Virus record (IMG/VR): IMGVR_UViG_3300005683_000014
Direction: 5' to 3' (one strand)
Length of the DNA stretch: 20,000 nt
Source of the DNA: an uncultured virus (IMG/VR IMGVR_UViG_3300005683_000014)
Taxonomy: Duplodnaviria > Heunggongvirae > Uroviricota > Caudoviricetes
Both the position numbers and the translations under genes were made by a program. The notes under the pieces are model-generated. The model worked only from the letters and a program-made list of their open reading frames with translations. It was not told the DNA's origin and did no database searches. Below, one piece after another: positions 363 through 14,975 of this stretch (positions are counted from its first letter, which is position 1; each line of letters starts with the position of its first letter).

Positions 363-538
363 TTTTCACTCTGCGTCCTGTGATCGAGATCGAGGCCGAG
401 TCCTCGAACGAGGCGCTCAAGAAGCTCTTGTGCAATATGTCCAATCATCTCGGCGAATTCGATGTGACTATCGATCCCGATGATGGTACCCTGCCTGAGG
501 AGGAGGACTACCCCTCGATCGAGACTAAGCATGGGTGA
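359..538 (+). CDS. Hypothetical 59-aa acidic protein (MIFTLRPVIEIEAESSNEALKKL...)
   Basis: Not in the ORF track; translated by hand. ATGA overlap with the upstream stop, purine-rich SD region, and it fills the gap to the exonuclease exactly. Confidence 0.65.
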   Translation: MIFTLRPVIEIEAESSNEALKKLLCNMSNHLGEFDVTIDPDDGTLPEEEDYPSIETKHG

Positions 539-1841
539 CGCCTGGATGGCTAGCGCCAGCCAGATTTCTACCTGGAGCCGGTGCAAGAGGAAGTGGTACT
601 TCGAGAAGGTGATGAAACTGTTTGCTCCTCAGCATCCCAGTGCTGAGTTGGGCGAGCGGTGTCATAAGGCGTTGGAAATCTACATCGAGACCGGACGCAA
701 AGAAGCGGACGATGACGTGATGCGGATCCTGGCACTGGTGTGGGACCAACCTTGGTTGCGTCGACTGGTGCTGGATAAACGCACACAGGTCGAACACAAG
801 ATCGAGAACCTGTTCATCGGTGGTATCGGGCTCAATGGCCGGATCGATCTCGGGTATCGGAGTGGTGCGTTCCCAGCGGGTCTGAATCCGATAGCGGAGT
901 GGTCCGCAATTGATATCCCTGAGCCGGATGAAACAGGCAAGACGCGAGTCATCATCGATCATAAGTCCACCAGCAATTTCTCGTATGTCAAGTCACAGGA
1001 AATTGCTTTGGAGGACCCGCAAACAGTCGTGTACGGGGCAGCAGCGTTCTGTGATCCGACTATCGAGGAGGTGGTGTTCGTCTATCACTACTTCCGAACG
1101 AAGGGCCCTCCTATTCTCCCGCGATGTGTGATTGTGCGTCATACGCGAGAAACACTTGCACCAGTGCTGGAGAAATTCGCTGTTTTCCTTGACGAAATGA
1201 GGCAGATGCGCGATCTTCCCCTGGCTGCCATCCCCCGAAACACTGATGCCTGTTGGGATTTTGGCGGGTGTCATTTTCGTGGTCAGTGTTTCGAAGAACA
1301 AGAAAACTCTCTCACCGAGGAGCAGATCATGGCTGATACGGGTTTCGATTTCGATGCGTTGCTGGCCGCTCAGGCTGCTAAGGGTTCTGGTCCTGTTCCC
1401 GCTGCGGCGCCGGCTTTTGTCCCCCCTCCTGTGAAGCCTCCAGAGCCGAAGCCCGAGTCTGTGAAGGCTCAGGAGCCGGTTAAGGTGCCCGAGACCAACA
1501 AGCCTGCGTCGCCAGTTGTTTCACTACCTACAGGCTTCAAGCCCATGTTCTTCTGCGGGACTATGGTCGTCGGAGTACACATGGTTTCTATCGAGGAAAT
1601 CGCCGCGCCCTATGCCGAGAACTGGTCGAAGGCGAACAAGGGCGTTCACTACCTCAATGCCGACTTCAACAAGGCGGAACGGGTTATCGCGGTGCAGATT
1701 ATTGCGGACATGGCGCGTGGCGAACTGGAGATCCCTCCATTCGTCTACATTCGTACGGACTCGGTCATCGGGAAGTTGGTGCGAAACGAGCTGTATCTGT
1801 TGAAGGACAAGATCCACGTTGTGGTGCCGACGATCGCGTAA
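531..1841 (+). CDS. PD-(D/E)XK exonuclease (RecB/AddB/Cas4-like, probable 4Fe-4S) with Pro/Ala linker and C-terminal unknown domain
   Basis: SASQISTWSRCKRKWYF, LGERCHKALE, GRIDL, IIDHKST, Q..VY and a C-terminal CWDFGGCHFRGQC. Start is ATG 531 or 546 rather than 480. Confidence 0.85.
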   Translation: MGDAWMASASQISTWSRCKRKWYFEKVMKLFAPQHPSAELGERCHKALEIYIETGRKEADDDVMRILALVWDQPWLRRLVLDKRTQVEHKIENLFIGGIGLNGRIDLGYRSGAFPAGLNPIAEWSAIDIPEPDETGKTRVIIDHKSTSNFSYVKSQEIALEDPQTVVYGAAAFCDPTIEEVVFVYHYFRTKGPPILPRCVIVRHTRETLAPVLEKFAVFLDEMRQMRDLPLAAIPRNTDACWDFGGCHFRGQCFEEQENSLTEEQIMADTGFDFDALLAAQAAKGSGPVPAAAPAFVPPPVKPPEPKPESVKAQEPVKVPETNKPASPVVSLPTGFKPMFFCGTMVVGVHMVSIEEIAAPYAENWSKANKGVHYLNADFNKAERVIAVQIIADMARGELEIPPFVYIRTDSVIGKLVRNELYLLKDKIHVVVPTIA

Positions 1842-1859
1842 TCGCGACTCCTGGTTGAA

Positions 1860-1896
1860 TTGACGTTCCCAGGGTGACATGGTATGCTACCCTGGG
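1860..1896 (+). promoter_or_regulatory. Sigma70-type promoter for the primase operon, overlapped by an inverted repeat
   Basis: TTGACG (1860-1865), 17 bp, TATGCT (1883-1888) with an extended -10 TG. CCCAGGGT (1868-1875) and ACCCTGGG (1889-1896) form an inverted repeat. Confidence 0.7.
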
Positions 1897-1920
1897 TCTG
1901 TCGTCTCTATTGGAGGCGTG

Positions 1921-4389
1921 ATGAGCTATATTCACGTGTGGCCGGATAGGTACCCGGATAGGTGGGACGGAGGCTCGCAAGTCGAGAATCTGACTGCCTT
2001 TCTGCGCGTACCGTTCCGCGATGCTCTCACCAAGCGTTACACGACCGACGCCCACTTCAGCCCGGCGATGCTCGGGGACCAAGAGTCCTTTCCGCCGATG
2101 AAGAAGAAGGGTTTTCCTCAGCACTACATGGACATGGTTCGCTACCACGTGCTGGTGGTGGATCTTGACGCCCCCGACGAAATGGTCGACGGCGAGATGG
2201 TAAAGCACCATCGTACTCCTGAATGGGAAGCGAAACAGTTGGAGCTGCTTCGTGATACCCCTTGGGATGGGGCGATCAAGTACGTGACTAAGGGCGGGTA
2301 TCGCTTGGTTTGGGAGCTTCCTGAGTTCCTGACCATTAAGCAGTACGAAATCACTTTGAAGGCTGTGTGCTCGGCTCTACGGAGGATTGGGATGAATCCC
2401 GATCCGCTGTTCGACTGGGTACGTTGCTTCCGTTTGCCGTTCGTGGTTCGAAAGGATGAGCGCACGAATTTCAAGGCCGAGGCTCAGGAGTTCTCCTACT
2501 ACGATTCGGAGAATCCGATTCTCCCGCTGGCTTTCCTCGACCTCAAGGCCGAGGTGACTGCGACTCAGGTCTCGCTTGGTACGCTTATCGAGAACACCCA
2601 GCTTCCGCTGTCTTTGAATAGTTCAGCGGCGACTGGAAGAAACAATTTCCTGTACCGCATCGGCTGCTCCCTTCGCAATCTGGCCTGGATTGATGAGGAG
2701 CTTATGGCTGACTTCCTGAACCGCGTGAACGAGCGTAAGTTCGAGTTGGATCCTCTTGATTTCGACGAGATCCAGGGTATCGCAAGCAAGGTGTGCAGCC
2801 AGCACGAGGTCCAGGAAGGAACTGATCTTGAGACAGTAATCGAAGAGCCTCTGCCGGTTATCAAGATTCAGGGAGGGGAGTTGGACGTTCATGTGCGTGA
2901 AGCTATTGCGTCTCTCGTACGCGCTGAGAATCTGTACGTCCGCGGAGGCAAGCTCGCGCGCCTCACTCCCGAGGAAATAGAGGTGCTTCCCAAGGACGCC
3001 CTTTGTACGCTGATGTGTGAGAACGCCGAGTACCAGCGCGCCAAGCCTCGTAAGGACGGAGGCTTTGACATGATCAGCATCGATCCTCCCAACAAGCTAG
3101 TGGACTGTGTATACGTGGCCGGGCACTTCCCCGGAATTAGAGAGCTGGAGCAGATTGTGACGTTCCCCACCCTCAGGCCCGATGGCTCCATGTTGGAGCA
3201 CTCCGGGTATGACGAGCAGACCCGTGCCTATCTCCGTCCGACGGTGGAGGTACCATCTGTGCCCGACGTCGTCTCGGAGGAGATGGCAGGGGACGCGCTT
3301 ACGCGAATCAAGCTCTTGTTCCAGGACTTCCCCTTCGCCGAGCGCTGTCACGAGTCTGCGGCTATTGCTGCGATCATGACTCCGGTTCTACGTCTGGCCA
3401 TCACAGGTCCGACTCCCCTCTTCATCTTCGATTCCACGACCCCCGGCTCGGGCAAGAGCCTGCTCGCGGACATCGTGTCAATCATTGCGACAGGGGAGGA
3501 TGCTGCTCGACGCCCGCAGACCGATGACACGGAGATGCGCAAGGAAATTACTGCGGACCTTCTCGCCGGCACCCTCGTCATCCTCATCGATAACGTGGAT
3601 CGCCCTCTCGGTGGTCCTGCTCTCGATGCCGCGCTCACGTCCATCAACTGGACTGGTCGCGAGTTGAGCCGCACCAAGATGCTCAAGCTGAAGAACATCA
3701 CTACGTGGTTGGCGACTGGAAACAATATCGTTGTCAAGGGAGACCTCTCGCGGCGGTCGATGCGTATCTATCTCGATCCTGGGATGGAGCGTCCTGAGGA
3801 ACGCAACAAGTTCCGCATCCCGAAGTTGTTGGAGTACGTGCGAGAGAACCGTGCGCAGCTCATCCACGACATTCTGGTCTTGGCGCGCGGTCGTCAGCAG
3901 TCGGGGTTCTCCGGTGTCAGTGCCTTTGGGTCGTTCGAGTCCTGGAGCTACTGGGTTCGTGAGACACTCATTTGGTGTGGACAAGCGGATCCGCTCGACA
4001 GCCAGAAGCCGCTGCGTGAGGGTTCATCGGTGTCGACGTGGGGTCAGATTCTGTTCAACCTGTTCCACGTGTTCAACACCAAGAAGTTGGCTACCTCAAC
4101 TGAGGAGTTCACGGCCAAGCAGGTTCACGACTGTGTATTCGACAACATCGGACCTGGCTCGGCCGACCACAAGGCTGTTCTTTCGTCCGGCTACCAGGAG
4201 TTGACGGATGACCAGTCTGTGCGGAAGACCACGGACATTCTTCGTCGGTGGTCGAATCGAGTAGTAGGTGGATTCAAGCTCGTGGCCAACAACGACGAGC
4301 GTCGTAAGGCTCTCAAGGGCGTGACGTATCGCGTCGAGAGAATTGATGTTCCCAACCTTCAGGTAGTCCCGAACACCAAGATCGGGTAA
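1921..4389 (+). CDS. Primase-helicase fusion: AEP-like primase, PriCT-1-like domain, P-loop NTPase
   Basis: VLVVDLD, YVTKGGYRLVW, D..R.FRLP; GRNNFLYRIG...PLDFDEIQGI (PriCT-like); Walker A TPGSGKS, Walker B ILIDNV, ATGNN, DLSRR. SD GGAGG at 1912-1916 favours a 1918/1921 start. Confidence 0.8.
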   Translation: MSYIHVWPDRYPDRWDGGSQVENLTAFLRVPFRDALTKRYTTDAHFSPAMLGDQESFPPMKKKGFPQHYMDMVRYHVLVVDLDAPDEMVDGEMVKHHRTPEWEAKQLELLRDTPWDGAIKYVTKGGYRLVWELPEFLTIKQYEITLKAVCSALRRIGMNPDPLFDWVRCFRLPFVVRKDERTNFKAEAQEFSYYDSENPILPLAFLDLKAEVTATQVSLGTLIENTQLPLSLNSSAATGRNNFLYRIGCSLRNLAWIDEELMADFLNRVNERKFELDPLDFDEIQGIASKVCSQHEVQEGTDLETVIEEPLPVIKIQGGELDVHVREAIASLVRAENLYVRGGKLARLTPEEIEVLPKDALCTLMCENAEYQRAKPRKDGGFDMISIDPPNKLVDCVYVAGHFPGIRELEQIVTFPTLRPDGSMLEHSGYDEQTRAYLRPTVEVPSVPDVVSEEMAGDALTRIKLLFQDFPFAERCHESAAIAAIMTPVLRLAITGPTPLFIFDSTTPGSGKSLLADIVSIIATGEDAARRPQTDDTEMRKEITADLLAGTLVILIDNVDRPLGGPALDAALTSINWTGRELSRTKMLKLKNITTWLATGNNIVVKGDLSRRSMRIYLDPGMERPEERNKFRIPKLLEYVRENRAQLIHDILVLARGRQQSGFSGVSAFGSFESWSYWVRETLIWCGQADPLDSQKPLREGSSVSTWGQILFNLFHVFNTKKLATSTEEFTAKQVHDCVFDNIGPGSADHKAVLSSGYQELTDDQSVRKTTDILRRWSNRVVGGFKLVANNDERRKALKGVTYRVERIDVPNLQVVPNTKIG

Positions 4390-4401
4390 CAGGAGATTCA
4401 A

Positions 4402-6498
4402 ATGAGTAATGCTGTCATCCCGGTCGCGGAGCGGGAGTTCTTTCGCTTCGACGATGTGTTCTTCGAGCCCTATCGCAACACCGAGCCTCAGTGGACGGTT
4501 GAGGGGTATATCACGTACCTGCGAACGTACTCCGCCACCATCGTGGACGAGGTCACGGGCAAGCAGCGAAATGAATTGTGGTGGGAGACGTGTCGCCGTG
4601 TGGTCGAGGGGGCGATGTCTATCCTGCGCTGGCACATGAAGAAGCGCGGCGTTCTGGAGACGCCTTGGTATCAGGACGTGGAAGGATACTGGTCACGCGC
4701 CATGTACCATAGCCTGTTCTACCAGAAGTGGTCGCCGGCGGGTCGTGGACTCCAGCACATGGGGCGACGGGACGTTATCTGGGAGAAGGGCGCGGCCGTG
4801 CTCAACAACTGTGCCTTCGTATCGACCGCCAACATCGACAAGGACTTCACCTACCCCTTCGAGTACCTCATGGACATGAGCATGCTCGGGGTTGGTGTCG
4901 GGTTCGATACCGAGGGAGCCGGCAAGGTTCTTTGGGGTCCTCCTGGGATCGACAAGGATTTCACGTTTGTGGTGGAGGACACGCGAGAGGGCTGGGTGGA
5001 GCTTCTGCACGTGGTGCTCAACTCCTTCATCGGCAAGAGCAAGTTCCCAGGCGTCATCGATTATCGACAGATCCGTCCTCTGGGTACGCCGCTCTTGACT
5101 ATGGGTGGGTTGGCGTCTGGTCCTGCTCCTCTTCAACTCATGGTGGATGAGCTGCTTCAAATCATTGGTATGGGGCAGCGCTGCATCGAGTGGTTCGAGT
5201 TCGATCCTGAGGTGCGCACCTACTCGTACGTTCCTACCTGGGACCGGTATGATGATACCCTGATCACCTCAAACCAGATTGGAGACATCGGTAACATCGT
5301 CGGGAAGTGCGTCATCAGCGGAGGTATCCGGCGGACTGCCGAGATCATCCTGGGGAACATCGAAGACATCGAGTTCTTGGATCGCAAACAAGATATGGAG
5401 TTGCTGAAGGCTTGGCGCTCGTTCTCTAACAACAGCATCGTAGCTGACCAGCCCCTGACGTATGAGCAGTGCGATTTCATCGGTACTCATGCTGCTCGTT
5501 TCGGGGACCCTGGAATCTTTTTCCGTGGGAACGCTCGTGCTTGGGGTCGCACTCTGGAGCAGTGCCTGTTCGACTGGGTGATTGGGTGCAATCCCTGTGG
5601 TGAGCAACAGCTCCTGGACGGTGAGATGTGCAACCTCGTCGAGACCGTGCCCTGGCGTCATGATTCCATCGAGGACTACATGAGCACGGCGCGCTGTGCC
5701 TTCTTGTACGCCAAGATTGTGTCCCTGCTTCCGACACACCGCCCCGAGATCAATCTCATTCAGGAACGAAATCGGCGTGTGGGTGTGTCCATGACGGGCA
5801 TCTTCATGGCATACAACAAGTTCGGACGCTCCAAATTCTTGGAGGGGTACTGTGCTCACACGTATGAGGATATGGGCTACTTCGACCGGGAGATTTCCAA
5901 CTTCCTGGGCGTTCGCTTCTCCGTGAAGCGAACCTCGGTCAAACCCAGTGGCTCGGTGTCTCTGGTGCTTGGGGTCACGTCCGGTATTCGTGCGCCTGAG
6001 GGTCCTTTCAGTCTGAAGTTGATCCAGTTCGAGCAGACGTCTCCCCTTCTGCCTATTCTACGGGCCGCGGGCTACCGCATCGAGAAGTCCGTGTACACGC
6101 CCTCGTCGTATGTCGTGTATTTCCCTGTGCGCCTGGAATGCGAGAGGGGAGTCGATGACGTGTCGGCGGCCGAGCAGATCGAGATGGTCAAGGACATGCA
6201 GTGTTACTGGGCCGATAACATGGTGTCCAACACCATCGAGTTCCAGCCATCGGAGATTAACGATTTGGGCAAGCTCATCTACGAGGCGCAGGGAAGCATC
6301 AAATCGTTGACGCTCATGGCGCGCGTTCATGGGTTCGAGCAGGCTCCATTCCAACGCATCACGGAGGAGCAGTACGAGAAGGAAATCGAAAACATCTTGC
6401 CGATTGACTTCTCGTCTCTGCATGATACTGTGGTCCACGAAATTGACGAGCGGGGCTGTGACAACGGAAGCTGCTCTCTCGTCCCTCTCCAGGAGTGA
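4402..6498 (+). CDS. nrdJ: Class II adenosylcobalamin-dependent ribonucleoside-triphosphate reductase (monomeric type)
   Basis: PAGRGL, LNNCAF, MLGVGVGFD, DTREGW, IRPLG..L.TMGGLASGPAPL, GGIRRTA, SNNS, NPCGEQ, CNLVE, VKPSGSVS and a C-terminal CDNGSC redox pair. SD AGGAG. Confidence 0.95.
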   Translation: MSNAVIPVAEREFFRFDDVFFEPYRNTEPQWTVEGYITYLRTYSATIVDEVTGKQRNELWWETCRRVVEGAMSILRWHMKKRGVLETPWYQDVEGYWSRAMYHSLFYQKWSPAGRGLQHMGRRDVIWEKGAAVLNNCAFVSTANIDKDFTYPFEYLMDMSMLGVGVGFDTEGAGKVLWGPPGIDKDFTFVVEDTREGWVELLHVVLNSFIGKSKFPGVIDYRQIRPLGTPLLTMGGLASGPAPLQLMVDELLQIIGMGQRCIEWFEFDPEVRTYSYVPTWDRYDDTLITSNQIGDIGNIVGKCVISGGIRRTAEIILGNIEDIEFLDRKQDMELLKAWRSFSNNSIVADQPLTYEQCDFIGTHAARFGDPGIFFRGNARAWGRTLEQCLFDWVIGCNPCGEQQLLDGEMCNLVETVPWRHDSIEDYMSTARCAFLYAKIVSLLPTHRPEINLIQERNRRVGVSMTGIFMAYNKFGRSKFLEGYCAHTYEDMGYFDREISNFLGVRFSVKRTSVKPSGSVSLVLGVTSGIRAPEGPFSLKLIQFEQTSPLLPILRAAGYRIEKSVYTPSSYVVYFPVRLECERGVDDVSAAEQIEMVKDMQCYWADNMVSNTIEFQPSEINDLGKLIYEAQGSIKSLTLMARVHGFEQAPFQRITEEQYEKEIENILPIDFSSLHDTVVHEIDERGCDNGSCSLVPLQE

Positions 6499-6558
6499 GA
6501 TAAGGCATCGGAGGACTGGGTGGCCTTCCTGGAAGAGGAACATCACCATCAGAGGAGA
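6491..6558 (+). repeat. Direct repeat blocks A and B, copy 1
   Basis: A 6491-6513 matches 7220-7242 at 21/23. B 6534-6558 (AGAGGAACATCACCATCAGAGGAGA) is identical to 7250-7274. Confidence 0.9.
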
Positions 6559-6568
6559 GTTCAAACAG

Positions 6569-6958
6569 ATGAGCGAGACTGAGAACAAGAACGAGAAGAT
6601 CCCGAAGCCCCCGATCGATTCGGTGACCTTCGTGGGCTACAAGGGCGGTGAGTTGGTGTGGAACACGGTCGAGACGCGCGCGAGCAAGGAGGAGGATTCG
6701 GTCCTTCTCAACGCCAAGACGTGGCCGAACGTGCGCAAGTTGCACTGCACGTACGATCGCATCCGGTCGGCCCCGTTTGAGGTGCAGGATGGTGAGTTGT
6801 ACGCCGGTGCCGATCTGGATGCTGCGCTGAAGGGCATGGCGTTCTTCTATGACAAGAAGATCGAGCGCCTGACCAAGCATCGCACTCGCGTCCAGGAGCT
6901 GGGCGAGGCGATGAGTGAGAACTGCGTCGAGGTGCTCAAGGAAGCGAGGGCTCAGTGA
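6569..6958 (+). CDS. Hypothetical protein, 129 aa, with C-terminal coiled coil
   Basis: ATG 6569 follows the GAGGAG in repeat B. Codon usage is strongly GC3-biased and there is a GTGA overlap with the next gene. Confidence 0.75.
6942..6958 (+). repeat. Direct repeat block C, copy 1
   Basis: AAGCGAGGGCTCAGTGA is identical to 7278-7294 and contains an SD-like GAGGG and a GTG start. Confidence 0.9.
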
Positions 6959-7182
6959 ATCCATTTCTGAATTTCGGGCAGGCGCTCGAACTGCTCAAGA
7001 GTGGACAAAGGGTCGCTCGTCAGGGGTGGAACGGTAAGGGCATGTGGCTCGCTCTACAGCGTCCCGATGTGAACAGCAAGATGTCCCTGCCGTACATCTA
7101 CATGAGCACGGTCACCGGTGATCTCGTGCCGTGGCTGGCGTCCCAAACGGACGTCCTGGCCGAGGACTGGATCTCCGTGTGA
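6955..7182 (+). CDS. tad2: Thoeris anti-defence 2 (Tad2)/DUF2829-family cyclic-nucleotide sponge
   Basis: [26 protein letters not shown]...[14 protein letters not shown] matches the DUF2829/Tad2 signature (FGEAL..LK.G..V.R.GWNGK.M.....[12 protein letters not shown]). Confidence 0.9.
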
Positions 7183-7186
7183 GTTT

Positions 7187-7207
7187 GGGCCGGGACATCA
7201 CCGGTCC
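7187..7207 (+). terminator. Conserved hairpin, copy 1 (terminator or RNA processing element)
   Basis: GGGCCGG-GACATCA-CCGGTCC, 4 nt after the tad2 stop, with no U-tract. Confidence 0.55.
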
Positions 7208-7219
7208 GTTCCATCACCG

Positions 7220-7294
7220 AGGAGTGAGATATGTCATCGGAGAAGGAGGAGAGGAACATCACCATCAGAGGAGAAGAAAGCGAGGGCTCAGTGA
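7220..7294 (+). repeat. Condensed A+B+C repeat, copy 2
   Basis: A 7220-7242, B 7250-7274 and C 7278-7294 lie in the same order as in 6491-6958. Confidence 0.9.
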
Positions 7295-7665
7295 GCACTC
7301 CCTATTACACCGGCCGCTTTTACGAAGGGGTTGTGACACAAGCCATGTTCGAGTCTGGGGATATCCCGGAAGAGGCTCGATACAACTTCTATAAGACGTT
7401 CCGGATGGACGTCTGTTTGAAGCAGATGGTGGTGCGTGCAAAGTGGTATCGCTGGCCGGAACCCGTGAGTGAGCTTCGGGAGGGATGGGATCATGCTCCT
7501 GCTCTGAAGGGAGGGCTCGCTATTCCTTTTGAGATTCATAAGGTGGCAGTCACCTTCAAGAACAAGGAGGATATGGATAAGGCGCAACGTCTTGCCATTG
7601 AATCTGTGCTCAGCTTGAAGTATCGCGTGTCCGAGGGTTCCCTGTATCCGCTGATTACTCTCTGA
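7231..7665 (+). CDS. Hypothetical protein (alternative start GTG 7291)
   Basis: Open frame with SD AGGAG before ATG 7231. The first 20 codons are entirely repeat sequence, and the in-frame GTG 7291 has the same context as the tad2 start. Confidence 0.7.
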   Translation: MSSEKEERNITIRGEESEGSVSTPYYTGRFYEGVVTQAMFESGDIPEEARYNFYKTFRMDVCLKQMVVRAKWYRWPEPVSELREGWDHAPALKGGLAIPFEIHKVAVTFKNKEDMDKAQRLAIESVLSLKYRVSEGSLYPLITL

Positions 7666-7673
7666 TCGAACAT

Positions 7674-7698
7674 GGGCCAGGACAGCACTGGCCCTTTC
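7674..7698 (+). terminator. Conserved hairpin, copy 2
   Basis: GGGCCAG-GACAGCA-CTGGCCC-TTTC, 8 nt after the stop codon. Confidence 0.6.
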
Positions 7699-7708
7699 GG
7701 GAGGTCAT

Positions 7709-8158
7709 GTGAAGACACGAGAAGCATTCGCGAAACTCGGTGTCGAAGTGCAGTGGGCAAAGCAACGAGTCGTGCTCCATGTAGGGCGCGAGCGAAACAA
7801 AATCGTTTGCTCCCCTCCTGCGTTCCGGTGGCTCGACAAGTTGGTTCGTTGGGCACTCGAAGCCGGATTCAATCAAGAGCAATTGATGGGGGTCATCCGT
7901 GGATCTGGATGCGCTATTCAAAGCAAGAGAGAAAAGCGGGAACCAGCCTACCAAAGAGCTGAATCTCGACTCGATCTTCAGCCCATCGAAGACGATTGTG
8001 AGCCCGGTCCCCAGCCTGATCCTCCCTTCGACCCCCGTATTGACGACGAGTTCCGGTACGGGACCGTCATCATCGACGGAGTTGGATTCTATCCTCGGGA
8101 AGATGAAGGGCGCCCGGGACGACGAGTGGCAGCGAATCATCGCCGTTCCTCGCGCTGA
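7709..8158 (+). CDS. Hypothetical protein overlapping the helicase 5' region
   Basis: Strong SD GGGAGGT before GTG 7709 and protein-like composition. It overlaps the next ORF by up to 260 bp. Confidence 0.6.
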   Translation: MKTREAFAKLGVEVQWAKQRVVLHVGRERNKIVCSPPAFRWLDKLVRWALEAGFNQEQLMGVIRGSGCAIQSKREKREPAYQRAESRLDLQPIEDDCEPGPQPDPPFDPRIDDEFRYGTVIIDGVGFYPREDEGRPGRRVAANHRRSSR

Positions 8159-9760
8159 GCCCGTAAACACGAAGAGTGTCGCGTGGCTCCATGTTACGCG
8201 ACAATTCACTCTTCGCGAGATTCAAGCTACCGCGCTGGCCATCATTCAACAGTTTGGCGGCCTGTTCGGTGACATCGGAGTGGGTCACGGTAAATCGTTG
8301 ATTGCGTGGCTCACACCTGTAGTTCGTGGATCCGAGCGCTGCGTCATCATGATGCCCTCGGACATGGTCGAGCCCTTCAAGGCGGACATTGCTAGATTCA
8401 AGGAGCACTTCAGGAAGCCCAAGGTCGAGCCCACTATCCTCCCCTACTCCATTCTCTCGCGCGCCGACGGCACGGACATTCTGGATCGTTTGGCCCCGGA
8501 CATTATCGTGGCGGACGAGGGGCACACTCTCGCCAACGATTCGGCCCGTACTCGCCGGCTCAAGCGCTACTTCGCTGCGCACCCCGAGACCACGTTCGTC
8601 GTGATGTCAGGGACCTTCATCGGTCCGGAGATGTCCAAGCTGGCCCATCTCGTTCACTACGCGTTGCGTGAAAATGCTTTCATGCCGGTTCGTGGGCGGG
8701 CTCTTGAGGTCTGGGGCGAGTGCGTGGACCTGGACGGACGGCCCGCTGAGTCGGACTGGAAAGTGTTTGAGCCCCTGGCCAAGGCCGAAGGGTTCGACAT
8801 ATGCGGGCAGGTAGGGGAGGATAGAACTACGCTGGCACGGAAGGCCGTGTTCTCGCGTATGTTCACTACCCCTGGTGTAGCCACTACTACAGAGAATGCT
8901 TGTACTACGCCGCTTGTCTGTCGGCGCGTTCGGTCGCTCGAAGTACCGCCTGAAATCGATGAGGTGCTTCGGCGGATGAGGACAGGGGAGGAAACGCCTG
9001 ACGGCGAGGACATCATTGCAGACGATGCGCAGAAGGCTCGTCTACAGCGACACCTCAGCATGGGGTTCTACTACCGCTGGGCCTGGGAGTTGATTGGTGG
9101 TCGTAACGAGGAGTGGCTCATGTCGCGGCGTGCCTGGAATCGCGCTGTACGCAAAGAGTTGGAGCGTAATTCGCGGGAGCACTATGACTCTGAGAAGTTG
9201 GTGTTCGATGCCGTGGCGCGCCAGCTTCTTGAGGATCCTTCGCTGGCGCACAGAAGCCTCCTCCACATGAGCTTCGTGGAGTGGCGCAAGATGAAAGAAT
9301 TGGTCAAGCCGCCCACGGTCCCTGTGTGGCTCGACACCTTCATGCTCGACTGGCTGAAGAAATTTCTTGCGTCCCGGCCCCCAACTCTGGTTTGGTATCA
9401 CTCAGACGCAATTGAGGAAGCACTCGGCGCTATGGGTCTCCCCATCTACGGCGCTGGGTCGCTTCCCCCCTCTCGACATGAGACCTGTGGTGTGGCAATT
9501 GAAGTGCATCACAAGGGGAAGAATCTTCAGTTCTTCAATCAGAATCTGGTTGTGGAACCCTTTGGAAACGGAAAGCGCTGGCAGCAATTGCTGGGGCGCA
9601 CGCGTCGACCTGGACAAGAGGCGCCGTTGATTGAGACCTTCATCATGGCGCATACCGATATCTTGAATTCCTACATCGACAAGGGTATAACTCAGGCAGA
9701 GTTCTCGGCGCTGGGTGGCTCCGAGCAACATCTGCTTCAGGCTAAGTGGGAGATTCTCTA

Positions 9761-9761
<1 letters not shown>
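7899..9761 (+). CDS. SF2 DExH helicase (SNF2-like phage helicase)
   Basis: LREIQ (Q motif), GVGHGKS, VADEGH, MSGT and QQLLGRTRRPGQ (motif VI). Start is GTG 7899 or ATG 8103. Confidence 0.88.
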
Positions 9762-10728
<967 letters not shown>

Positions 10729-10750
10729 AACTTAGTTAGTGAGGTAGTTC

Positions 10751-11272
10751 ATGGCTGACGAAAAGCCGGTTGTGTCGATTGGCGCCGACGTCGAGAAGGC
10801 GAAGATGGGCTCGGGTGGTGGAACGTATTTCCTTTCGGGGGTGTACGACCTCACCATCAGTGACGTGAAGGTGTTTCTGGGGCAGGAGGACGAGGTCCCG
10901 ACCGTAGCGGTCGAGTTCCTCATTGACAAGTACGTTCCGAAGGCCCCGAACAAGGTCGAGGATCGTCCGGTCGGTACGACGGTGTCGTGGGTGCAGAAGC
11001 TGCGTCCCGACATCAAGAAGACCATCCTGGGCAACCTCAAGGCCGCCGCCCTCGCGTTCATGCAGCAGCTCGTCAAGCAGAGTGGTGGTGACTGGGAGAA
11101 GGTCACGGAGGAGCACGTGACCAAGGCGCGCATCGACAACGACATCTTCTGCAACAACAGCAAGGTGGTCGGTCTGAAGATCCGCTCCGAGGCCTACGAT
11201 CATCAGACCAAGGGCAAGCAGGGCAAGAAGGAGAAGCAGTGGATTGTCCTCAACAAGTGGATGGTCATCTGA
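10751..11272 (+). CDS. Putative single-stranded DNA-binding protein (OB-fold, DUF669-like)
   Basis: SD GAGGT. YFLSGVYDLTISDVKV...VEFLI...VSW...GNLK...VGLKIR pattern of phage SSB-like proteins, highly optimised codons, located between helicase and polymerase. Confidence 0.55.
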   Translation: MADEKPVVSIGADVEKAKMGSGGGTYFLSGVYDLTISDVKVFLGQEDEVPTVAVEFLIDKYVPKAPNKVEDRPVGTTVSWVQKLRPDIKKTILGNLKAAALAFMQQLVKQSGGDWEKVTEEHVTKARIDNDIFCNNSKVVGLKIRSEAYDHQTKGKQGKKEKQWIVLNKWMVI

Positions 11273-11279
11273 CTTGCCT

Positions 11280-11305
11280 AGGGCCGGGACAGCACCGGCC
11301 CTTTC
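11280..11305 (+). terminator. Conserved hairpin, copy 3
   Basis: AGGGCCGG-GACAGCA-CCGGCCCT-TTC, 8 nt after the SSB-like stop, followed by a pyrimidine tract. Confidence 0.65.
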
Positions 11306-11341
11306 TCCTCCCTCCAACAATTTCCTGAAAGAGGTACTCTC

Positions 11342-11989
11342 ATGGAATCGATTCAGTTCAGTTTCCCCATCTCCGGTGGACGGATTCAGGCGGTCGTGTC
11401 GTATATCCCGCGTACGTGGTGGGATCGCCTTCGTCGTCAGTACCGGTTAAACTACGCGCTCTCCTTCTGCTCTCCGGAGGATCTGCGCGATAACTACAAC
11501 GAGGAGAAGGGTTTCAAGATCGCTCGTGAACGCTTGAATGCGTTTCTCTCCGGGCGACGTAGCCTTCAGAATCGCGGGTATGCCGGCACGCTCACCTTCG
11601 GGTATCAGCCCAACGTCTTCCAGATCCGCACCATGTTGTTCGACGCCGCCGTGGACATCGCGCCGCTTGACATCTGGTACAAGCGGGAGGACAAACTTCG
11701 TGCAGAGGCTCGCCTCGACTACTGGCGCTTCCTGGCCATTCGTAAGGATCAGAACACCGGCAAGGTGAAGGGTCTCGCCGAGACTCGGCAGCAGATCGAG
11801 AAGCACATTCGACATTTCGGTGTCCTGGGTATGAGACAGGTGATGTCGCTTCATCGGCGGCTCCCTCATCCTCCTACCTTCCTCCAGAGCCTTCACATCA
11901 TTGAGTCTCTCGTGGAGAGGGGATACGAGGCCACGGAGCAGGCCATGTTCCCGCCGCCCGTTGCTCAGATGGATGAGAAGGTAACGTGA
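11342..11989 (+). CDS. Hypothetical protein with N-terminal C-S-P-x-D...G-x-x-I-A-x-x-R motif (Gp49/Gp66-like)
   Basis: SD GAGGT; YALSFCSPEDLRDNYNEEKGFKIARERL. Confidence 0.7.
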   Translation: MESIQFSFPISGGRIQAVVSYIPRTWWDRLRRQYRLNYALSFCSPEDLRDNYNEEKGFKIARERLNAFLSGRRSLQNRGYAGTLTFGYQPNVFQIRTMLFDAAVDIAPLDIWYKREDKLRAEARLDYWRFLAIRKDQNTGKVKGLAETRQQIEKHIRHFGVLGMRQVMSLHRRLPHPPTFLQSLHIIESLVERGYEATEQAMFPPPVAQMDEKVT

Positions 11990-12345
11990 TGATTCACACC
12001 TTCTTCTACCAGACGGTCTGCCTGGAGCAGGAGAAGGAGTGCAAGACCACCTACCGTAAATCCGTTTCGACCCTGCCTCACATCCCGGACGCGGTCTTCG
12101 ACGAGTTCTCGCCGAAGGCCGGGTTCGAGGTGACTGAGGTACGATTCGATCTGGATCGCTGTGAGATGCACGTGGTACTGGAGAACCGGGTTATGAACGA
12201 TGCCCCGATCGAGTGCGACATGTTCATGCAACAGAATGGGTGGCAACGCGCTCCTCGTGATGCACGCTACTGTGTCGAGGTGGAGTTGAACCTCAAGGCC
12301 TTCCCGTCGGCGGGATACAACCAAGACAAGCACAAGAGAAAGTGA
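11986..12345 (+). CDS. Hypothetical protein, 119 aa
   Basis: GTGA overlaps at both ends and normal codon bias. Confidence 0.7.
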   Translation: MMIHTFFYQTVCLEQEKECKTTYRKSVSTLPHIPDAVFDEFSPKAGFEVTEVRFDLDRCEMHVVLENRVMNDAPIECDMFMQQNGWQRAPRDARYCVEVELNLKAFPSAGYNQDKHKRK

Positions 12346-14975
12346 TGGATCTCGACGCCCTGTTCGCGAAACGGGGGCAGGAGATGGCTGCGGCCCCTCC
12401 TGTTCCCGCTCCTGTGATGCGCTGGAACGCTCCTGCGGCCAAGGCCAAAGAGGAGCCCGTGATCTGTGAAGCGTTGCCTGACCCGGTCCTTATCCTGGCC
12501 TGGGACACGGAAACGCACAAGATTACCGAGAAGACCGGACCTACGCCTCCCCTCGTCTGTCTGCAAACTCAATTCGTTGAGTTTAAGGATGGTCACTGGA
12601 TCGAGGCCCAGCCCATGATTTGGGGCGCGGACGACGCGCGTAAGCGACAGGGCGTCGATTTCATCTTCCATGTTCTTATCAACCGCCCCGACGTGACCCT
12701 GGTCTCGCTCAACGGCTTCTTCGATTTCGCGGTCATCCTGAAGTACATGGGGTGGCCTCTCGATCTCGTGCGCGCCGTGTTCAAGGCCTTCTGCGATGGG
12801 CGCATTCGAGACTGTATCGCTCGCGCCAAGGAGCACGCAGTCGAGTTTGGTTGGCTGGAGTACGACCCTTCTCTGGGCGTCCGGCCTCGCTTTAACATGG
12901 AGCAGCTCGCGCAGAAGTACCTTCAGGAGGACGTGAAGGGAAAGCACGGTGAGGATTCGTTCCGCCTGCGCTACGGGGAGCTGGATGGTCAGGGCTGGGA
13001 GACATGGCCCGAGGAAGCCGTCCGCTATGCCATTATGGACCCCGTGTACACGCAGCGTATCTGGCGCGCAATCTGCGTTGCATCCTCCCCTCCTCCGGAT
13101 GAGTGCATGCAAACGGAGAGTGCTTGGCAGCTTCACCTCGCCTCGGTCAATGGGATCTTCGTCGACCAGGAGCGAGTGAAAGTGTTGAGATCCAAGATCA
13201 TTCCGGTGATCAAAGAAGGCATCGAGAAGCTCTGTCAGACCAAGGCCGTGGTGCGCGTCAAGGACAAGAAGAGTGGTGAGTTCAAGGAGCAAGAGCTGAC
13301 CGCCTACACGCCCGGCAAACCGACGCTGAACAAGAAGAAGTTCGGCGCCATGGTGGATGCTGCGTTCGGTGGACATGCTATGCGCTCGCCGAAGACCGGC
13401 GCCGTGTCCCTGACGGAGAAGCAGCTCAAGGGTGCGTTCAACCTCACGCAGAACCCGCTGTTCAACCCCAAGCTCACCGCGGCGGCGCGCATTGCCCTCG
13501 CGGCTCAGTACGACCAAGACAACCTCGACGATGAGGATTTGGAGGATGACGGTGAGGTAGAAGAGGGGGAGGAAGAATCGTCCTCTGAGCGGCTAGTGCT
13601 CTACTCCAAGCCCAAGAAGACTATGTCGGTCATCTACGACATTGTCGAAAATCATTTCAAGGAGCGTGGGCTGGCAGTCCCCTTGACCAAGCCCAAGACT
13701 CGAACGGACCCGAACACGGGCGAGGACATCACACCCAAGCCGCGCACCAAGACCTCGCGCGATGTCATCGAGCAGGTACCAGCGCTCAGGCCATTGGCTG
13801 AAATCGGCGCCGCCCAGAAGGTAGAGAGCATGTATCTCTTACCGAGGAAGGGGAGGCCGGCTCTATTCGATATGTCCACGGCGCACGCGAACTGGAACCA
13901 CATGGTGGCCTCGGGGCGTGTGTCAGTTGGCAATCCGAACTTGAACAACATCCCCCGTATGGCTGGAGTGCGCGAGTGCTTCCGTGCGCGGCCTGGGTAC
14001 ATCCTCATTTCGGCCGACTATGCGCAGGCCGAGCTGTGTTCGCTGGCTCAGGTGTGCATCGACAAGTTCGGCTACTCGCGCATGGCCGAGCTGATTAACG
14101 AAGGTCTGGATCTGCATCTCTATCTGGTCGGCAAATTGCGTGACCAGGACTACGAGTGGCTCGTCAAGAACAAGAAGCTGCCCGACGTCAAGAACGATCG
14201 CCAGGGCGCGAAGGCCGCTAACTTCGGGTTCCCGGGTGGCCTCGGCATCGAGAAGTTCATCAAGTATGCTGCCGATACGTTCGGCATCATGGACATGACG
14301 AAGGACGAGGCCGAGGAATGGAAGGGGATTTGGAAGAGCGAGTACCCCGAGATGCCGGTGTACCAGCGCTGGGTCTCGAACAAGGTCAAGAACAGTCCCA
14401 GCGAGTTCTTTACGGCGATTCAACATCGTTCGGGCCGGCGCCGCCGAGTTGGGTATACGGACGGCTGTAATACCTACTTCCAGGGCCTGACTGCGGACGG
14501 TGCCAAGCACGCGATGAACCTCATTGGCCGTGAGGCGTGGTGTGACCCCGACTCCCCTATCTACGGGTTCAGGCTGGTGGCGCTCATCTACGATGAGATT
14601 GTCGGTGAGATGCCAGACAGGGGGTGGCTAGCCAATACGCGTGCGGCTCTGCGCCTCTGCCAAATCATGAAGGAGGCCATGGAGCTGTTCACGCCCGATG
14701 TGGTTGCGAAGGTCGAACCCGCATACCAATACAACTGGTCGAAGGGTGCGGATCCCGTGTGGGCGGAATTGGATGGTGAAAAAGTTTTGCTGCCGTGGGA
14801 GCACCGAGGTGGCAAGTTCCTGACCGGAAATCCTAATGATCTTCAGTTGGTTACAAAACCGCCACTTTTTGATCTCTCAGGCTTGACCGGGTGGGCTAGC
14901 CGTGATTATACCAAGTTGGTGAGACTGGAAGAGGCTCCTGAAGAGATTCAGAAACAATTCAGAGAGGCTGCGTGA
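12342..14975 (+). CDS. polA: DNA polymerase family A with 3'-5' exonuclease domain
   Basis: ExoI AWDTET, ExoII NGFFDF, ExoIII YAIMD; SGRVS..NPNLNNIPR, motif A SADYAQAEL, motif B RQGAKAANFGFPGG, NTYFQGLTADG, motif C IYDEI. Confidence 0.95.
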   Translation: MMDLDALFAKRGQEMAAAPPVPAPVMRWNAPAAKAKEEPVICEALPDPVLILAWDTETHKITEKTGPTPPLVCLQTQFVEFKDGHWIEAQPMIWGADDARKRQGVDFIFHVLINRPDVTLVSLNGFFDFAVILKYMGWPLDLVRAVFKAFCDGRIRDCIARAKEHAVEFGWLEYDPSLGVRPRFNMEQLAQKYLQEDVKGKHGEDSFRLRYGELDGQGWETWPEEAVRYAIMDPVYTQRIWRAICVASSPPPDECMQTESAWQLHLASVNGIFVDQERVKVLRSKIIPVIKEGIEKLCQTKAVVRVKDKKSGEFKEQELTAYTPGKPTLNKKKFGAMVDAAFGGHAMRSPKTGAVSLTEKQLKGAFNLTQNPLFNPKLTAAARIALAAQYDQDNLDDEDLEDDGEVEEGEEESSSERLVLYSKPKKTMSVIYDIVENHFKERGLAVPLTKPKTRTDPNTGEDITPKPRTKTSRDVIEQVPALRPLAEIGAAQKVESMYLLPRKGRPALFDMSTAHANWNHMVASGRVSVGNPNLNNIPRMAGVRECFRARPGYILISADYAQAELCSLAQVCIDKFGYSRMAELINEGLDLHLYLVGKLRDQDYEWLVKNKKLPDVKNDRQGAKAANFGFPGGLGIEKFIKYAADTFGIMDMTKDEAEEWKGIWKSEYPEMPVYQRWVSNKVKNSPSEFFTAIQHRSGRRRRVGYTDGCNTYFQGLTADGAKHAMNLIGREAWCDPDSPIYGFRLVALIYDEIVGEMPDRGWLANTRAALRLCQIMKEAMELFTPDVVAKVEPAYQYNWSKGADPVWAELDGEKVLLPWEHRGGKFLTGNPNDLQLVTKPPLFDLSGLTGWASRDYTKLVRLEEAPEEIQKQFREAA

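Follow-up and report, generated by a model that had tools for sequence, protein, structure and literature searches.

A lineage-specific N-terminal peptide shared by helicase, DNA polymerase and a predicted protein nested in the exonuclease gene of a phage replication module

The replication module and the shared peptide

The window analysed here is a 20,000-nucleotide stretch of an uncultured virus of the Caudoviricetes (IMG/VR record IMGVR_UViG_3300005683_000014) and corresponds to the last 20 kb of a phage record of 73,380 bp. It carries a replication module with a Cas4-like exonuclease (531-1841), a primase-like gene, a class II ribonucleotide reductase and an SF2-type helicase (7899-9761), followed by an uncharacterized 227-aa protein, a single-stranded DNA-binding (SSB)-like gene (10751-11272) and a family A DNA polymerase, PolA (12345-14975). 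The module is widespread (330 matching stretches in IMG/VR) and little studied. We describe a short peptide, hereafter the tag, with which the helicase and PolA begin and which recurs inside the exonuclease gene. Its copies and look-alikes are:

1347..1364, + strand: tag copy DFDALL in the exonuclease gene (regular-expression match; retained in 4/4 aligned exonucleases)
7902..7919, + strand: tag copy DLDALF at the helicase N-terminus (regular-expression match; relaxed pattern in 9/11 close homologues with a called extension of at least 20 aa)
7962..7979, + strand: second tag-like copy NLDSIF in the helicase extension (read from the sequence; not conserved among orthologues)
8079..8096, + strand: third tag-like copy ELDSIL immediately before the helicase core (similar in close orthologues: ELADIL, ELADML, QLDTLF)
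12348..12365, + strand: tag copy DLDALF at the PolA N-terminus (regular-expression match; xDL[DN][AD]LF in 4/4)

When the 73,380-bp genome is read in all six frames, the pattern D[LFIM]DAL[LFIM] has exactly three matches, namely the copies in the helicase, PolA and the exonuclease gene. A crude estimate from the proteome (98 genes, 21,597 aa) gives about 0.01 expected matches to D[LF]DAL[LF], a pattern defined post hoc. In a ranking of 4,851 pairs of N-termini, PolA/helicase came out on top, by one point only (29 vs 28), and PolA/exonuclease was sixth. The readings given in a preliminary description of this DNA were confirmed for PolA (MDLDALF from ATG 12345), for the helicase ((M)DLDALF from GTG 7899) and for the additional copies NLDSIF (7962) and ELDSIL (8079) in the helicase extension. 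The same description assigned a peptide at 1329 to the exonuclease; the frame indeed reads MADTGFDFDALL from ATG 1329, but this position is codon 267 of 436 and not the N-terminus of the enzyme. Four of the six third codon positions differ between the helicase and PolA motifs and the upstream DNA is not shared; DNA duplication was rejected as the origin of the copies on the family-wide codon comparison given below.

For comparison we gathered a family sample of ~90 loci (numbered with the prefix L), collapsed to 58 lineages at 60% helicase identity by keeping one representative of relatives above this value; the exonuclease was included in 54 of the 58. L001 and L002 (duplicates of L004 and L005), L083 (the window's own contig) and L087 (a fragment) were excluded from counts. 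Start strength is given throughout as Shine-Dalgarno pairing energy in kcal/mol. The selection on the peptide proposed in the preliminary description is borne out: orthologues carry and retain it rather than lacking it, it did not spread by DNA duplication, and the tags of the helicase and of a predicted nested protein (see below) co-vary across 53 lineages. Comparison of the sequences indicates that the peptide is a real, conserved and co-evolving tag.

A nested start in the exonuclease gene

531..1841, + strand: Cas4-like PD-(D/E)XK exonuclease gene, long form of 436 aa (Pfam PF12705 at residues 7-253, E 9e-14; PHROG 69)
1317..1331, + strand: internal ribosome-binding site GAGGAG (1317-1322) and in-frame ATG (1329) (-8.1 kcal/mol; enriched family-wide)
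1329..1841, + strand: predicted nested protein of 170 aa, with tag, linker and small alpha/beta domain (separate genes in L036, L040, L052)
1524..1838, + strand: C-terminal domain of the nested protein, ~100 aa, fold unassigned (AlphaFold2 pLDDT 91.9)

The long form consists of the nuclease domain, the tag, a Pro/Ala linker and a C-terminal domain. It is assigned as Cas4-like on the basis of a PD-(D/E)XK core with 1+3 cysteines and a PF12705 match above the cut-off; the invariant residues are C18, D106, D143, K145, C241, C247 and C253 (the cysteines in 68 sequences). The tag copy sits 13 codons past the last cysteine of the nuclease domain. ATG 1329 lies in frame, 266 codons into the gene with no stop before it, and has its own ribosome-binding site at the domain border, as is characteristic of a nested in-frame gene. 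Orthologues keep the motif G[FI]DF[DEN][AGS]LL and the preceding Met in 4/4 cases, and an unconserved Pro/Ala linker follows.

In 4 of the 54 lineages the exonuclease gene is split, with a stop 16-21 codons past the last cysteine. A separate gene encodes the tag, the linker and the same C-terminal domain in L036, L040 and L052, and a tag-linker gene without that domain is present in L072. The split forms are scattered among the fused ones in the helicase tree, in more than one place. Of the 50 fused lineages, 49 have an ATG in frame no more than 70 codons from the last cysteine, and the first such ATG (chosen by rule) has a median start strength of -5.9 kcal/mol, with 35/49 at or below -4. Pairing is weaker at control ATGs in the nuclease core (n=186, median -2.6, 25% reaching -4; p 1e-7) and in the helicase and polymerase (n=1,050, median -2.2, 20% reaching -4; p 3e-11), and folding of the mRNA is much weaker around the best nested start than it is in the core (-4.0 against -9.5, n=50, p 5e-11). 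Owing to these start signals, the open mRNA and the split genes across lineages, 1329 is very probably a true translation start, and the exonuclease gene likely yields a tagged nuclease and a 170-aa tagged protein from two starts. Ribosomes would initiate at both 531 and 1329 and produce the tagged nuclease fusion together with a probably more abundant 170-aa tagged protein. Such a nested gene, previously unannotated, is predicted in the exonuclease gene of nearly every family member.

The nested C-terminal domain has no Foldseek match at E<=0.001, no structural resemblance beyond a weak NMP-kinase-like topology (best Z 4.7), no Pfam or PHROGs family common to more than one of 62 members and no Atlas match at 0.9. 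In about a quarter of the lineages that retain the tag it is swapped for other, unrelated domains.

The helicase copy

7899..9761, + strand: SF2-type helicase of 620 aa with a GTG start and an N-terminal extension of ~70 aa (weak DEAD and PHROG 62 matches)
7709..8158, + strand: upstream gene, the last 260 nt of which run through the helicase extension in a different frame (Shine-Dalgarno -9.7)

GTG 7899 is preceded by a strong Shine-Dalgarno sequence at 7888-7893 (-9.1 kcal/mol). A start at 8103, which would leave the helicase without the peptide and which the preliminary description had considered, was rejected, as ATG 8103 reaches only -1.1 kcal/mol; the equivalent pair in L004 gives -9.7 vs -1.5 kcal/mol. 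We collected 59 helicase homologues including the window's own. Among the 20 closest, 11 have a called extension of at least 20 aa and 9 of these 11 match the relaxed tag pattern, the other nine sequences being truncated calls or short. Within the motif, 3 of the 4 base changes that separate the window from L004 leave the helicase residue unchanged, though the overlapping gene reads the same stretch. The overlap with the 7709-8158 gene is also seen in L004, L084/L086 and L085; at 8037-8119 the two overlapping frames both appear constrained. A second helicase of the genome (G000 C1:3907-5787; PHROG 62, E 1e-79) has no tag.

The polymerase copy

12345..14975, + strand: family A DNA polymerase of 876 aa, its N-terminal tag followed by a Pro/Ala linker (Pfam PF00476, PF01612)

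ATG 12345 has a weak Shine-Dalgarno sequence (-2.9 kcal/mol) and overlaps the stop of the upstream gene as TGATG; the rival ATG 12384, which omits the motif, is stronger (-8.6 kcal/mol). In the close sequences the motif is retained in 4/4 and the second Met is not, and the start in L004 reaches -6.6. In a survey of 150 PolA representatives, 130 could be placed and 24 have an extension of at least 18 residues; about 9 of these 24 begin in a tag-like manner as judged by eye (e.g. P0077 MDLSNLF, P0140 MDVMSLF, P0097 MGLLEKL). Within the window's subclade, extensions are present in L085 and L084. Judging from these sequences, PolA bears the tag in some lineages only. PolA is split over two open reading frames (ORFs) in L085 (9012-11640), with a small gene in between, and in L084 (3664-5903). 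An acidic insertion of ~30 residues at 13500-13590, inside a long PolA insert, is retained in 4/4 close orthologues.

Co-variation of the tags across the family

Family-wide, the tags do not read DLDALF and include acidic as well as basic forms (net charge -3 to +4; e.g. MSLLEKLKA, MSFFSKM, MGIFKLG). In a permutation test with starts chosen by rule (n=53 lineages), helicase and nested-protein starts of the same genome resemble each other more than permuted pairs (z 4.0-4.5), and with prolines neutralised the signal rises to z 4.8-5.3 (0/5,000 permutations). The partner from the own genome also beats that of the nearest lineage (median helicase identity 47%; p 0.002-0.004), which indicates matching finer than phylogeny, and z is still 4.5 when the window is omitted. 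As a control, a downstream segment of the helicase gives z 0.33. A downstream segment of the nested protein gives z 3.2, in line with the recurrence of tags in their own linker (z 3.0). SSB N-termini give z ~2 with the nested protein and no signal with the helicase, and polymerase N-termini give no signal. At identical residues the same codon is used in 38 of 72 cases vs 31.6 expected, therefore the matching is not due to DNA copying. Examples are L026 (MGIFKLG/MPLFKLN, with SSB beginning MTLSIFK), L065 (MGKLSQKLL/MSKLAARLL) and L085 (helicase VMALFERRK, PolA VMDLFKNRR).

Could such similarity arise from translation-start constraints, composition or chance, with no shared function? The shuffled controls of up to z 3.35, the poor match in many pairs and the position of the helicase extension in a dual-coding stretch are compatible with that view, but it does not account for an exact six-residue identity through different codons or for a peptide conserved ahead of unconserved linkers, and the SSB and polymerase N-termini of the same genomes give little or no such signal. 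We regard it as very unlikely.

Helicase tags have a higher hydrophobic moment than shuffled sequences (0.59 vs 0.53, p 0.004), as might be expected if the tags were amphipathic helices that target the membrane and place replication there in the host. Most family tags are indeed short, N-terminal, rich in leucine and phenylalanine and mildly basic, and they may resemble targeting helices of the MinE and FtsY type. However, the tag of the window's clade is acidic (net -3), the nested-protein tags show no excess hydrophobic moment, and lipid binding does not require a residue-level match within a genome that is finer than phylogeny. Membrane targeting is in our view a quite unlikely explanation.

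The tag as a predicted docking peptide

The reading that best fits these observations, drawn from sequence comparisons, is that the tag is a lineage-specific, often multi-copy docking helix. Unrelated proteins keep matching peptides on flexible linkers, independently of codons, and change them jointly, which is explained most simply by a common receptor that drifts along with them; a receptor that drifts with the tags is in turn likely to be phage-encoded. On balance we think it probable that the tag docks to one shared protein site on a phage-encoded receptor. We propose that the tag adopts a short helix upon binding, that tags and receptor drift jointly so that every lineage has its own version, and that clients (PolA, sometimes SSB) gain or lose the tag. 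The repeated copies would confer avidity for a multimeric or DNA-coating receptor, and nuclease, helicase and polymerase would be brought together at forks or at intermediates of recombination; the phage has no recognised clamp. Encapsulation peptides of microcompartments, i.e. terminal helices borne on linkers that gather unrelated enzymes, provide a precedent that serves as a lead.

Several observations weigh against this reading. Co-variation is loose, with only 14/53 pairs in the top tenth and 3/35 ranked first; z for shuffled N-termini is 1.1-1.5 on average with a maximum of 3.35, composition contributing to the signal, and some of the best-matching pairs are just proline-rich. The hydrophobic moment of the nested-protein tags does not exceed that of shuffles (0.48 vs 0.48). 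Several helicases of the family have no extension at all, as do 106 of the 130 placeable PolA relatives; L006, from the same subclade as the window, lacks the PolA tag, and family-wide PolA co-variation is absent (z -1.05), the rule having chosen ATG 12384 for the window's PolA. The SSB starts with a tag-like segment in L019, L026, L036 and L052, as would be expected of a client no less than of a hub. A column-by-column search for a partner, based on compensation in charge or size and covering SSB, the nested domain, nuclease, helicase and polymerase (primase excluded; L021, L043 and L067 omitted from this search only) yielded none after correction. The best family-wise p values there were 0.056-0.061 (single columns of SSB, nuclease and polymerase), with one polymerase column at 0.016 among ten tests.

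The lack of a compensating column in any universal protein tested would also follow if the tags bound each other, as homotypic helix bundles or "stickers". The tags of nuclease, helicase, polymerase and sometimes SSB would then interact with one another and come together in a condensed, private replication body without a clamp or folded hub, with the nested protein as a scaffold or titrating regulator; if so, the proteins of co-infecting relatives would be excluded too. The matching of tags inside a genome and not between lineages, the copies recurring along low-complexity linkers (z 3.0) and the ability of SSB and PolA each to gain a tag agree with this proposal. Against it, a conserved core of just 6-9 residues would seem short for stable self-association, and in many lineages the tags carry a net charge (-3 to +4 across the family) and would repel each other. 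Self-association is thus unlikely, although it deserves to be kept in mind.

Candidate receptors

10751..11272, + strand: SSB-like OB-fold protein of 173 aa, candidate hub (pLDDT 92.9; PrgE 8s4s, E 5e-5, TM 0.40)

If the tag docks to a phage-encoded receptor, the SSB-like protein, which resembles the plasmid protein PrgE in its OB fold, is the best, if tentative, candidate for that role, although on balance less likely than not. It was found in all six lineages where it had initially been missed and is present in every lineage re-examined; in the window's clade it has no acidic C-terminal tail. An SSB coating the single strand would suit multi-copy tags, and the docking of acidic helices to RPA70N-type OB folds is a precedent for an OB fold as peptide receptor, useful as a lead.

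The 227-aa protein had also been put forward as a common hub. It is restricted to the window's subclade (6 loci) and has no usable Atlas match; being confined to that subclade, it cannot be a family-wide hub and was rejected as such, although it may serve as one within the subclade. The nested C-terminal domain was likewise rejected as a universal hub, as unrelated tails replace it in roughly a quarter of the lineages that keep the tag. Across the family the primases belong to several types, and inspection by eye revealed no tag at the N-termini of primase and RuvC-like proteins. A profile search of the whole genome G000 found no RuvC-like gene; the profile was based on the 34 of 58 lineages in which such a gene lies near the module.

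No clamp or clamp loader was recognised among 80 ORFs of the genome (27 + 53, PHROGs), most of which are unassigned; no gp45-like clamp was found with PF09116, in a search without a positive control, and no Ctf4-like family appeared among the scanned ORFs.

Comparison with known systems

The principle of a shared docking peptide combined with a nested start is already known, and the tag system is not a member of the Ctf4/CIP-box, T4, T7 or beta-clamp systems. In yeast, Pol1, the helicase component Sld5 and Dna2 share a short two-turn helix, defined by a handful of hydrophobic and charged residues, that binds one site on the trimeric hub Ctf4 (the CIP-box; PMC4980431). The likeness lies in one short peptide on a helicase, a polymerase and a nuclease, as is the case here. 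The Ctf4 system, however, is eukaryotic and has a known trimeric hub, whereas in this phage the hub is postulated, the tag sequence is replaced from lineage to lineage and a nested start supplies one of the clients.

In T4, the LDFL-type C-terminal motifs of gp43, gp55 and gp33 bind the phage clamp gp45 (PMC2988020, PMC9690074). Both cases involve a short hydrophobic and acidic peptide with a divergent linker on unrelated phage proteins, polymerase included. The logic of the T4 analogy drawn in the preliminary description therefore holds; its details do not, as the T4 motifs are C-terminal and bind the clamp gp45, while here the copies are N-terminal or in N-terminal linkers, the polymerase belongs to family A and no clamp has been recognised. 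A T4-type clamp is unlikely to be the receptor.

In T7, the acidic tails of gp4 bind gp5, and gp4 is made as colinear 63/56-kDa proteins by means of an internal start (PMC12593628). The nested in-frame start of the exonuclease gene parallels that of gp4, but the T7 tails sit at the C-terminus and have the polymerase as their receptor, whereas here the polymerase itself is tagged and the entire catalytic domain is absent from the nested product. T7 gp2.5 has a matching acidic tail. The C-termini of the window helicase and SSB show no T7-type acidic tails.

The bacterial beta-clamp binding motif has the consensus QL(S/D)LF (PMC9690074), and in the window's clade the tag likewise closes with LF, preceded by a residue that is acidic or small. 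This acidic-hydrophobic ending, together with the lack of a recognised clamp or loader among the 80 ORFs, so that the phage may borrow processivity from its host, is what speaks for the tags addressing a host factor, either the beta clamp or a factor governing turnover (a protease or an adaptor). Yet no window copy or close orthologue has the Q of the consensus (PMC9690074), the tag is N-terminal and not conserved across the family, and a range from acidic to basic would be unlike ligands of a conserved host surface. The free variation of the tag between lineages and the missing Q likewise make the host clamp, named in the preliminary description as a possible hub, unlikely, and among the explanations considered we give a host factor the least credence.

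Hosts and significance

Six of the nine genome loci of the module lie in two Myxococcus species, and helicase matches occur in 37 of 401 genomes sampled from the Myxococcus phylum, many of them fragmentary. The Myxococcus prophages are organised in the same way; their nested starts read MSLRDKLL or MSLLNRF, and their helicases begin MRLLHRL or MNLLDRL. Among cultured phages in INPHARED there are zero matches to the helicase or the nested protein, the sole match being the metagenomic record MW202816. Neither the tag nor the nested gene is described in the titles and abstract openings surveyed, with subscription journals and supplements outside that scope. The finding suggests how a widespread phage replication module may assemble without a recognised clamp; lineage-specific tags make the joint drift of a docking code and its receptor open to swap experiments, and the Myxococcus prophages bring the module within reach of cultured hosts. 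Myxococcus genomes (L090-L095; G001, G002 and others) contain up to four module copies, of two sequence types.

Neighbouring features

After the helicase, at 9761-10052, lies a small, extremely Asp/Glu-rich ORF that includes a run of N, with a similar ORF in L001/L002; its composition makes a DNA mimic or acidic partner possible. A gene at 6955-7182 encodes a Tad2-like (Thoeris anti-defence 2) domain (E 1e-26). Three GC hairpins with a similar loop, each followed by T residues, lie just past gene ends (7187-7211, 7674-7698 and 11281-11305) and appear terminator- or processing-like.

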